Sequence record: KT184314.1
Length of the DNA stretch: 64,000 bases
From: Enterobacteria phage KhF2
Direction: 5' to 3' (one strand)
Part shown: piece by piece, positions 58,560 to 60,608 of the stretch
Numbering within the stretch: position 1 is the stretch's first letter
How the letters are laid out: each line of letters opens with the position of its first letter
Made by a program: the position numbers and the translations under genes
The notes under the pieces: generated by a model
What the model saw: the letters and a program-made list of their open reading frames with translations, nothing else
Database searches by the model: none
Told to the model about the DNA's origin: nothing

Positions 58560-58566
58560 AAAGTTG

Positions 58567-58594
58567 TTGACATAAAAAATTTGGTGAGTATACT
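58567..58594 (+). promoter_or_regulatory. strong sigma70-type promoter (TTGACA - 16 nt - TATACT)
   Basis: Consensus -35 at 58567-58572 and -10 at 58589-58594. Confidence 0.6.
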
Positions 58595-58619
58595 GAGCAG
58601 CATAAACCAACGGGTACTC

Positions 58620-58880
58620 ACCAGCATCACTTAAGAGTCTTTTAAAAGGGTTTTTAAGTGATGTTTGGTAAAGTATGGTTCTGTCCGGTAATGCGATGTA
58701 TGCTATGGTTTGGTGTGGGTAGTTAGTCTCAGCTACATTAAAATGAGACTTACCTTTTTAAAAGGTCTTTAAACAGGGTCTTTTAATAAGGTCTGGTCGT
58801 GTCCGGTTCGGTAGTGTTGGGCTTGGCTTGGTCTGGTCTGGTAAGGGTGGATGGTAGTAGCCACGTTAAAAATCTACCAA
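58620..58880. repeat. tandem G/T-rich elements (about 2 copies of a roughly 120 bp unit beginning AAAAGGGT(C)TTTAA and ending GGT...GGTAGTAGCC)
   Basis: Copies near 58628-58735 and 58738-58880; a third related copy at 60018-60140. Confidence 0.55.
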
Positions 58881-58939
58881 GTTTCTAAAGAGTCTTCTGT
58901 TGAGGGTTCTTTACAAACAACTTAACAATCAACTAAAGT

Positions 58940-59542
58940 GTGGAGCTAAATGCTATGAAACTGTTAAATATCAAAATCACTGGTACTCGTCCTTTCCTGA
59001 GCCACGCTGATACGCTGTCAGACCCGTTAAACCCTCTGACAAAATATCACAAGTCTCTGTCCAGTAAACGTAAAAAGACTGACGAAGACTATGCGCTCTT
59101 AGCAGAAAGCCAACTGGTAACCTCTTGTTACTACGATGAGCAGCTAGGTTTTGTTATGAACGGTGAGATGATTGAGGCTTGTATCAAGTCTGGTGCAAAG
59201 CTCAACAAACTTGGTAAGGTAATTGACCGAGCCATTATGCTGACAGATGTAGTCTTCCCAATGACTATCAAGAACTGTCCAGCAAACCCACAAGAACTTG
59301 CTAAGAATCCAGATTTTATCTATGCTAAATCTGTTAAGATTGGTACAGCACGAGTTATGAGCTACCGTCCAATCTTCCGTGATTGGTCTGTAGAGTTTGG
59401 TTTGATGTTCGATGAAGAGCAAATCACCAAAGAGGAACTTCTGATGGTTCTTGAAAATGCTGGTAACCTTTGTGGTGTAGGTGATTGGCGTCCACGCTTT
59501 GGTCGTTTTTCTGTAGAAGTTATTTCAGAAGGTAACGTTTAA
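58940..59542 (+). CDS. hypothetical protein
   Basis: ORF track. Confidence 0.5.
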
Positions 59543-59544
59543 TT

Positions 59545-59985
59545 ATGAATACGAAAGCATTAGCAGCAAAGTTTAGTTACGGTGACACTGTATCACATTC
59601 TGAGATGGACACCTTCTTAGGTATTGTGAAACCAACTTATCAAGGTGACATTGTTAAGTACGAAGATGAAATGAAGGCTTATGCGCTTACACGTCTAAAC
59701 CGACTTGAGAAGTTTATTGAGAAGCTTCTTAAAGAAGAGAAGATTTATCTGGTTGCTTCAATGGGTGTTGGTTATCGTGTGGTTGAACCTAAGCATCAAG
59801 CAACTATTGCAAAACGTAAAATGTCTGGTAAGATTGGTCGTGCTTTAAAGCAAGCCACTCAAGCAATTGAGAATGTGAACACTATGGCACTTAGTCATCA
59901 AGAACGTTCACGGTTGATTGAACAGCAAAACCATTTAGCTGCTATGAAAGCTAACATTAACAAGCAACGCAGAAAACCTTTCTAA
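59545..59985 (+). CDS. hypothetical protein
   Basis: ORF track. Confidence 0.5.
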   Translation: MNTKALAAKFSYGDTVSHSEMDTFLGIVKPTYQGDIVKYEDEMKAYALTRLNRLEKFIEKLLKEEKIYLVASMGVGYRVVEPKHQATIAKRKMSGKIGRALKQATQAIENVNTMALSHQERSRLIEQQNHLAAMKANINKQRRKPF

Positions 59986-59995
59986 GTTGACTAGG

Positions 59996-60022
59996 TAGCC
60001 TCTTCGGAGGCTCCTTTTTAAA
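59996..60022 (+). terminator. rho-independent terminator
   Basis: GGTAGCCTC-ttcg-GAGGCTCC followed by TTTTT. Confidence 0.6.
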
Positions 60023-60140
60023 AGGTCTTTAAGAGGGTCTTTTAATGAGGTACGGCGCGGTTAGGTAAGGTCTGGTAGGGTAGGGTGAGGTTTGGTATGG
60101 AAGGATGGCAGTAGCCTTATAAAAAATCTGCCAAATAAGC
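60018..60140. repeat. third copy of the G/T-rich element
   Basis: AAAAGGTCTTTAAGAGGGTCTTTTAATGAGGT...GGTAGGGTAGGGTGAGGTTTGGTATGGAAGGATGGCAGTAGCC parallels 58738-58880. Confidence 0.55.
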
Positions 60141-60224
60141 TATAAAATCTGTTGACAAGTCAGGTGTTATAGCTTATTTTTATACTCAATGTAATACAAA
60201 ATTTAATATAACTTTGAGGTCATT

Positions 60225-60608
60225 ATGAAAAAGATTTTATTAGCTGCTGCAATGGTTATGGTAATGAATTTACCAGTCAATGCAACAGAACTTCCAAATG
60301 TGGACTTATCAGGTGTTCCAGAAGACACTTGCCAGATTGTTAAAGGTGTTGCCCTATCTAAAGGTGAACTACTTAAACCAATCTCTGAAGAGTCTTTAAC
60401 AGAGATGACTGATAAGGTAACTGACTATCAGTATCGTGTTCTTGCAGAGTATTTCCTGCAATCTGCAAATATTAAAGAGAAGCACCCTGATGATATTGAT
60501 GTACAGGCTATGCTCAATCATCGTATCCAGTTTAAAGAAGATTTGATGCAAAAAGCTATGTATGGTGTTGAGTATTTCTTAGAAAACAGAAGCTGCACAG
60601 GTATTTGA
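60225..60608 (+). CDS. secreted/periplasmic protein
   Basis: N-terminal signal peptide MKKILLAAAMVMVMNLPVNA. Confidence 0.5.
   Translation: MKKILLAAAMVMVMNLPVNATELPNVDLSGVPEDTCQIVKGVALSKGELLKPISEESLTEMTDKVTDYQYRVLAEYFLQSANIKEKHPDDIDVQAMLNHRIQFKEDLMQKAMYGVEYFLENRSCTGI

Follow-up and report, generated by a model that had tools for sequence, protein, structure and literature searches.

In a stretch of 64,000 nucleotides from Enterobacteria phage KhF2 (record KT184314.1; hereafter the window), three related G/T-rich units lie on either side of a pair of genes downstream of a ligase gene. We read these units as vrRNA guide genes of a type II VIPR (Viral Interference Programmable Repeat) system of the SUSP1 clade, residing in a Felix O1-like phage, and assign this reading a probability of about 0.94. 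In each unit fixed GGY triplets alternate with free dinucleotides (NN), and the dinucleotides, read with one target base skipped after each pair, correspond to sequences of satellite elements found in Escherichia coli. VIPR is a recently reported form of RNA-guided DNA recognition with a non-contiguous code, which has been proposed to be older than CRISPR and to be reprogrammable. The locus is a member of that already described system and nothing new in kind. It amounts to an independent, sequence-only replication of the main VIPR claims (GGY/NN anatomy and a covarying pseudoknot) in a second phage of the clade, and it supplies three concrete guide-target pairs that are directly testable.

Type II VIPR was described in 2026 for Escherichia phage SUSP1 (bioRxiv 10.64898/2026.04.26.720920; 10.64898/2026.04.26.720927; PDB 36pp). 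Its Vipr protein is RAMP-like, kin to Cas5, Cas6 and Cas7 of CRISPR, and has an RRM core together with G-loop and thumb (10.64898/2026.04.26.720920; 10.64898/2026.04.26.720927). SUSP1-type vrRNAs are about 100 nt long and carry 9–16 tandem GGY/NN (YNNGG) repeats and an invariable pseudoknot tail (10.64898/2026.04.26.720920). One Vipr protomer occupies each repeat, GGY being held on the RNA and NN exposed (10.64898/2026.04.26.720927). Following a '1-nt skip rule', NN pairs are matched to double-stranded DNA as NNxNNx..., and the R-loop triplex silences transcription (10.64898/2026.04.26.720920; 10.64898/2026.04.26.720927). The SUSP1 experiments comprised small-RNA sequencing, co-purification of vrRNA with Vipr, GFP silencing, phage lambda assays and cryo-electron microscopy; among SUSP1-clade guides with identifiable targets, 18 of 20 aim at an E. 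coli satellite phage (10.64898/2026.04.26.720920; 10.64898/2026.04.26.720927). The available parts of these two papers (10.64898/2026.04.26.720920; 10.64898/2026.04.26.720927) give no account of the transcription and maturation of type II vrRNA arrays.

The units, each of about 125 nt, span positions 58625-58752 (A), 58753-58880 (B) and 60013-60134 (C). All three share one build, in which a 5′ hairpin is followed by 10 or 11 five-base repeats of GGY plus NN and then by a 34-nt tail:

58625-58663, + strand: vrRNA-A 5′ hairpin; 18 pairs, several of them G-U; −15.5 kcal/mol, z-score −5.9
58662-58716, + strand: vrRNA-A repeat tract, 11 units; NN code TT AA AT TC CC AA GA AT AT TT GT
58717-58750, + strand: vrRNA-A 3′ tail, H-type pseudoknot; stem 1 58719-58722/58733-58736, stem 2 58725-58730/58745-58750
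58753-58791, + strand: vrRNA-B 5′ hairpin, core 58758-58786; overlaps the T-run after tail A
58790-58844, + strand: vrRNA-B repeat tract, 11 units; NN code CT CG CC TC AG TG TT TT CT CT AA
58845-58878, + strand: vrRNA-B 3′ tail pseudoknot; stems GTGG/CCAC and GGTAG/CTACC, A-rich loop
60013-60050, + strand: vrRNA-C 5′ hairpin, core 60018-60045
60049-60098, + strand: vrRNA-C repeat tract, 10 units; NN code AC GC TA AA CT AG AG GA TT AT
60099-60132, + strand: vrRNA-C 3′ tail pseudoknot; stems AAGG/CCTT and GGCAG/CTGCC, each differing from tail B by compensatory changes

Units A and B are adjacent with a period of 128 nt; the original prediction was thus right about two tandem units and wrong about their length, which it gave as 120 bp. 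It had also placed a third copy after a terminator, and unit C indeed begins within the T-run of the terminator at 59997-60019. The strong G/T skew that it reported is borne out as well, the repeat tracts being 75–78% G+T against 50% for the whole window, and is explained by the strict 5-nt period (NN-GGY). Among the candidates that it offered, a structured non-coding RNA was essentially right, in that the units match vrRNA genes, which in the sister phage SUSP1 are expressed as RNAs some 100 nt long. The 5-nt periodicity and the hypervariability of the NN code had escaped it, as had the role of the RNAs as guides and their connection with the two genes that the copies enclose.

It is chiefly the flanks that the units have in common, and the mean column identity of the three is 79%. 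A scan of the 64 kb for GG recurring in a single 5-nt phase, with 6 of 12 positions as the minimum, returned only the three units, all on one strand. Tandem Repeats Finder called neither the 5-nt arrays nor the 128-nt units, both of which are too degenerate for it. The triplets of vrRNA-A read TGT GGT AGT GGT TGT GGT TGC TGT GCT GGT GGT. The 5′ hairpins have 16–18 pairs, several of which are G-U, so that they can form on the + strand only; such a conserved hairpin precedes every vrRNA and in most units takes in the U-tract that belongs to the tail or terminator before it. Downstream of its pseudoknot the tail of vrRNA-A has TACC and a T-run, its single-structure fold is a stem followed by a U-run, and in this it looks like a terminator.

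Between units B and C lie the two genes of the published locus:

58955-59542, + strand: vipr, encoding a RAMP-like RNA-binding protein of 195 aa; residues 1-195 match PDB 36pp_D ('SUSP1 Vipr protein') with E = 8.5e-129
59545-59985, + strand: vap1, accessory to vipr; its 146-aa product matches that of the gene after vipr in SUSP1 at 145/146 residues

Vipr of the window is identical to that of SUSP1 (locus L137) at 193 of 195 residues. The residues described as contacts to GGY and to both the target and the non-target strand, H17, K33, R39, E71, M72, K82, R138, D177, W178 and R179 (10.64898/2026.04.26.720927), are all conserved, and G87, K88 and C173 are likewise present; position 175 is V in both phages, and the structure paper (10.64898/2026.04.26.720927) writes T175. 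These contacts bear on another candidate of the original prediction, binding sites for a G/T-specific protein: a protein that recognizes each GGY does exist in Vipr, but its sites are on RNA and not on DNA. The start of vap1 lies 3 nt past the vipr stop codon, a location in agreement with the published locus. Neither gene received a function from Pfam or PHROGs.

Compared with the SUSP1 system, the KhF2 locus has near-identical Vipr and vap1, the same GGY/NN build, the same tail sequence types, the same 1-nt skip code and the same class of targets, E. coli satellite elements. It differs in the NN content of its guides, in the unusually many non-GGY triplets of vrRNA-A, and in layout, with two vrRNAs upstream and one downstream of vipr-vap1, whereas SUSP1 has one upstream and three downstream (10.64898/2026.04.26.720920). 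The KhF2 locus is also, unlike that of SUSP1, known from its nucleotides alone.

Variation of the units was assessed in 18 close relatives, fetched from IMG/VR via the gene between the units, which yielded 65 distinct arrays including those of the window. The flanks were almost invariant, whereas the repeat tracts varied in sequence and length and their NN pairs differed between phages; the relatives have 1 to 3 vrRNA units per intergenic region. Arrays contained 9–19 repeats, with a mode of 11–12, and array length was 3 modulo 5 in all 65. Repeat positions 1 and 2 were near random. Position 3 was G in 79%, T in 14%, A in 7% and C in 0%, position 4 was G in 96%, and position 5 was T in 88% and C in 11%. 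This position-specific composition defines the repeat unit as NN-GGY, a fixed triplet plus a free dinucleotide. GGY in 5-nt phase together with array lengths of 3 modulo 5 would make a simple detector. The present locus shows that a reading of raw sequence can flag VIPR loci.

Tails fell into four types whose sequences differ, but all keep two crossing helices of 4 and 5 pairs that make an H-type pseudoknot with an A-rich loop. In the alignment 98.7% of cells were paired, against 30–42% in slid controls, and 8 of 9 pairs showed changes on both sides, that is, compensatory ones. Alignment of the copies, structure prediction with covariation and comparison with related phages were among the checks that the original prediction had proposed.

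Such strong variation in copy number and sequence between very close phages could be taken for that of a neutral, fast-evolving pentanucleotide microsatellite devoid of function. A microsatellite is refuted, however, both by the conservation of positions 3–5 next to free positions 1–2 and by matches to satellite DNA under one reading rule (see below); the same architecture also occurs beside vipr homologues that are only 37–40% identical, and we regard the likelihood of this explanation as practically negligible. The phasing of the arrays bears on a further possibility, a feature acting at the DNA level, in which a promoter and a G-rich non-template strand would form an R-loop replication origin, or the tracts would serve as clustered sites for primase or recombination, in the manner of T7 or T4 origins or of immunoglobulin switch pentamers. 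The units do lie among replication genes (ligase, polymerase, dihydrofolate reductase and thymidylate synthase), their RNA would be G-rich and C-poor, and GGTC, TGGTC or GTGTC motifs are present in some of them. But an R-loop needs G skew and not a strict 5-nt phase or indels in multiples of 5, as found in 65/65 arrays; nor does it need a covarying RNA pseudoknot or G-U hairpins confined to one strand, and matches to satellites would remain unexplained. The chance that the units act in this way is vanishingly small.

In four of the relatives (L131, L132, L135 and L138, around 4200-4240) a 22-nt insertion, AAATTATATTCGATAGAGTATCTCAT, falls exactly in the loop of a vrRNA 5′ hairpin; its confinement to the loop fits the hairpin as a real structure. 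Distant vipr homologues of 37–40% identity were observed in five loci of higher-GC phages (L142-L146), flanked by 5-nt-phased (NNGGC)n arrays, which in L145 lie at 2930-2990, 3565-3850 and 4320-4500. These arrays abut stop and start codons directly, terminate in GGTTTTTT and are broken by a recurring spacer, about 45 nt long (L145 3736-3785 and 4397-4440). They probably represent another VIPR array architecture. As the distant homologues are again flanked by arrays, gene and arrays are pointed to as a functional pair. When IMG/VR was scanned with the AT-rich box TTTAAAAGGTCTTTAA, most of the contigs obtained were unrelated. Searches of the literature for Felix O1 repeats and transcriptomes yielded nothing relevant, and the PhageMaP paper on Bas63 does not treat intergenic regions of this kind.

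For an assessment of the guide code, the repeat tracts of the window were turned into NNx patterns and matched to IMG/VR, genomes and metagenomes. Natural targets of a type II VIPR system should often place the skipped bases at third codon positions and may lie on either strand. With vrRNA-A, one exact match was obtained in IMG/VR at skip 1 (22/22), on a contig that is found, without differences, in E. coli JNEC-KY173 (NZ_AP045169), whose satellite occupies 2241274-2252471; with skips of 0, 2 or 3 this contig gave background only, at most 16/22. The matched site, TTAAAGATGTCACCAAAGGAAATCATCTTTGT, is located inside a 235-aa gene adjoining the tape-measure gene of an 11-kb satellite in yecE, and the NN pairs fall on codon positions 1–2, which leaves the skipped bases at position 3. 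Neither Pfam nor PHROGs assigned a function to this gene. Nine NN pairs of vrRNA-C matched at 18/18, plus 1 of the last 2 bases, in a contig of Escherichia albertii with the same satellite genes, at a site (L150 947-972) 53 nt upstream of the homologue of the gene targeted by vrRNA-A. The full vrRNA-C code had no match as an exact pattern in IMG/VR or metagenomes. For vrRNA-B the full code, as an exact pattern, had no match in IMG/VR or genomes, and its best site, at 19/22, was in the serine-recombinase (integrase) gene of a satellite (L163 8999-9030), with the skipped bases on wobble positions. One satellite, that of E. coli JNE131328 (L163), contains best sites of all three guides, with 19/22 for A, 19/22 for B and 18/20 for C.

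Two sets of matches were set aside. The other five of the six genome matches to the 18-base C code were in unrelated metagenome-assembled genomes and were taken as chance, which is to be expected at 18 bases. A match to a 20-base version of the B code in a metagenome contig (L155) was likewise regarded as chance, because its skipped bases fall on codon first positions and the contig is unlike the satellite.

The same rule was then applied to all 65 arrays of this phage group against 11 satellite loci with a combined length of 224 kb. At skip 1, an NN match of at least 80% was found for 52 of the 65 arrays, against 2, 6 and 4 at skips 0, 2 and 3. At least 90% was reached by 39 of the 65, of which 11 were perfect, but by no control guide, whether its NN order had been shuffled (195 guides) or reversed (65 guides). 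No self-target was found in the 64-kb window, where the best skip-1 score, 16/22, was that of background; about 24 kb of the genome lies outside.

These matches bear directly on what the RNA does. The original prediction had suggested long structured leaders, and a version of this idea holds that the units are structured 5′ leaders or attenuators in which a ring or filament protein, bound to GGU triplets like TRAP, controls read-through with no guide function. The anatomy lends itself to this: as in the Bacillus trp leader, where TRAP reads 11 (G/U)AG triplets with 2–3 nt spacers, a protein oligomer would read triplets about 5 nt apart with free spacers, over a site of about 53 nt between a 5′ stem-loop and a terminator. 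In KhF2 a 5′ hairpin precedes some 11 triplets 5 nt apart (53–55 nt, as the TRAP site), the 3′ stem of unit A is followed by a U-run, and the units stand ahead of genes. A leader, however, has no reason to have NN pairs that spell E. coli satellite sequences, as 39/65 arrays do at 90% or more against 0/260 control guides and at skip 1 only. The triplet is GGY and not (G/U)AG, with A at triplet position 2 in only 1% of repeats, and the neighbouring protein is the structurally solved Vipr guide binder, a RAMP filament, and not TRAP (MtrB), an 11-mer beta-ring; the spacers carry the guide code in VIPR and none in TRAP. The silencing of targets in trans in SUSP1 argues in addition against read-through as the main role. 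Attenuation in place of guiding is therefore very improbable, although a secondary effect of Vipr binding on read-through, beside the guide role, is possible.

The coded matches similarly decide against a decoy or sponge RNA, which would titrate a host factor such as a GGU binder, tRNA 3′ ends, the 30S subunit via GAGGU, or G-quadruplex binders. Like CsrB and RsmZ, which sponge CsrA-type proteins, the vrRNAs are small RNAs with many short G-rich motifs to which many copies of one protein would bind; they are probably abundant, and their tails hold AAGGAUGG, which resembles a CsrA site. In CsrB, by contrast, the motif is GGA in hairpin loops and the regulator is sequestered, whereas the VIPR protein-RNA filament is itself the effector and reads DNA. 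NN is near random without enrichment of GAGGU, the conserved T at repeat position 5 would be needless for a G-quadruplex, and the coded matches and a dedicated Vipr partner fully account for the conservation pattern, which leaves a sponge with only a few per cent of likelihood at most. Other ideas, namely T7-type primase site clusters, two-tier G-quadruplexes, telomere-like TTAGG repeats and a sponge for tRNA CCA ends, were dropped because none explains free NN beside fixed GGY plus coded matches to foreign DNA.

VIPR also has much in common with Class 1 CRISPR effectors (Cas7-family RAMP filaments such as Cascade and Csm). In both, a guide RNA is covered by a polymerizing RAMP-fold protein, bases are flipped out by a thumb at regular intervals, the variable guide carries an invariant handle as its cap, and recognition is RNA-guided (10.64898/2026.04.26.720920; 10.64898/2026.04.26.720927). 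CRISPR flips every sixth base, whereas the VIPR period is 5 nt with 3 guide bases unpaired and 1 target base skipped; the VIPR guide is non-contiguous and phage-encoded, and it silences its target instead of cleaving it. The window has no repeat-spacer array, cas genes or adaptation module. A CRISPR-Cas array was rejected for the units themselves: direct repeats of 25–40 nt with unique spacers are absent, the units share their flanks, and no Cas Pfam domains were detected in neighbouring genes.

The satellites addressed by the guides are elements of 11–12 kb in E. coli that encode a serine recombinase, a Dit-like baseplate protein and a tape-measure protein and are integrated in yecE, next to tonB (tonB-yciI) or next to wrbA. 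Four of them, in L147, L160, L161 and L162, themselves carry one vrRNA each, with a tail of the type of unit B and without vipr or vap1, neither of which was found in the satellites by tblastn:

L147, 19949-20060: satellite vrRNA
L160, 10985-11095: satellite vrRNA
L161, 10995-11095: satellite vrRNA
L162, 10974-11085: satellite vrRNA

The satellite vrRNA lies in an unannotated stretch of up to 3.3 kb, and a satellite vrRNA of this kind is present in 128 of 5426 complete E. coli genomes. Satellites with a vrRNA only agree with the published remark on satellite-encoded vrRNAs (10.64898/2026.04.26.720920; 10.64898/2026.04.26.720927).

On the VIPR reading the system would function as follows. Each unit would be transcribed on the + strand, A and B most likely from the promoter at 58567-58594. 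One Vipr protomer (58955-59542) would settle on each 5-nt repeat of the mature RNA, with GGY flipped out and held and the two variable bases exposed, and the 3′ pseudoknot would cap the filament. The string of NN would then read double-stranded DNA as NNxNNx..., every third base being skipped, and binding would block transcription. The guides appear to aim at one family of 11–12 kb satellites in E. coli and E. albertii chromosomes, vrRNA-A presumably at the 235-aa gene by the tape-measure gene, vrRNA-C about 50 nt upstream of it, and vrRNA-B at the serine-recombinase (integrase) gene. The likely purpose is the silencing, during infection, of a satellite that parasitizes the phage, an effect on the satellite that we infer. 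By its 98.5% protein identity to SUSP1, the KhF2 locus would be expected to produce its vrRNAs as separate RNA species, about 100 nt in length, which purify together with Vipr, to assemble filaments, to form the triplex R-loop and to silence transcription of double-stranded DNA programmably.

Several points weigh against this reading. vrRNA-A has five non-GGY triplets in 11 (AGT, TGT twice, TGC and GCT), and its GCT breaks the 96%-conserved G at repeat position 4. The best match of vrRNA-B on the fetched satellites, 0.86, is barely above that of the best shuffled guide, 0.85. At the target of vrRNA-C a sigma-70-like promoter was not found, for which reason 'promoter silencing' at this site is a guess. 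By tblastn the satellite proteins had no homology to the 64-kb window, and parasitism of the satellite on this phage is presumed from the published work. Transcript ends and processing are, for this phage, predicted ones.

The non-GGY triplets of vrRNA-A may have a second meaning, since its perfect 22/22 target despite five such triplets in 11 hints at a code looser than the GGY consensus. Tentatively, and with the odds rather against it, the code may be looser in this way and, as a separate matter, the 5′ hairpin may have an as yet undescribed role, either as a processing signal or as a read-through or dosage switch that sets the ratio of guides.

The elements that surround the units are the following:

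57459-58559: ligase gene, upstream of the vrRNA promoter
58567-58594, + strand: sigma-70-type promoter P1, TTGACA-16 nt-TATACT, 11/12 consensus matches
58583-58590 and 58615-58622, + strand: 8-bp inverted repeat GGTGAGTA / TACTCACC, whose arms enclose the −10 box together with the initial ~25 nt of the transcript
59997-60019, + strand: intrinsic terminator after vap1, AGCCTCttcgGAGGCT then CCTTTTT; the vrRNA-C 5′ hairpin includes its T-run

The near-consensus promoter and the ORF-free stretch described by the original prediction both stood: P1 matches the consensus at 11 of 12 positions, and from P1 to the ATG at 58955 the + strand has no open reading frame (ORF) of at least 60 aa. P1 is nearly invariant among the 18 relatives, and it would probably drive the two upstream vrRNAs (A and B) and possibly vipr-vap1 too. 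The inverted repeat GGTGAGTA / TACTCACC, conserved in 18/18 relatives, could be an operator or a 5′ stem. Between the ligase stop and the vrRNA promoter, relatives have one of two alternative small inserts, neither of which is present in the window; one contains a hydrophobic ORF some 47 aa long and the other a basic one of some 60 aa (L123, L126, L130, L131 and L136, and L127, L134, L137 and L140). Downstream of unit C, a second promoter, TTGACA-17 nt-TATTTT at 60152-60180, precedes a gene at 60225-60608; a 19-nt inverted repeat (89% complementary) at 60133-60179 brackets its −35 box and looks like an operator. A helix-turn-helix regulator gene follows at 60815-61114.

Elsewhere in the window, 22 tRNA genes are clustered at 709-4931 on the − strand, as is usual in Felix O1-like phages. 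Rfam at gathering thresholds returned, over the whole window, these 22 tRNAs and no other model. The preQ1-I riboswitch (RF00522), considered for the small pseudoknot with an A-rich loop, was rejected, only tRNA models passing the gathering threshold in the window.

The source phage is Felix O1-like, of the genus Felixounavirus, and the 3.6 kb around the repeats is 97.9% identical to phage KhF1 and 93–96% identical to many other phages. In all, 259 phage records matched this 3.6-kb region and 129 of them encode a Vipr homologue, so that the VIPR locus is seemingly present in only some Felix O1-like phages. A Felix O1-like ligase-VIPR locus at 93% identity was also found in GenBank GU169904, a 147-kb record named 'Staphylococcus phage SA1', which is probably mixed or contaminated.

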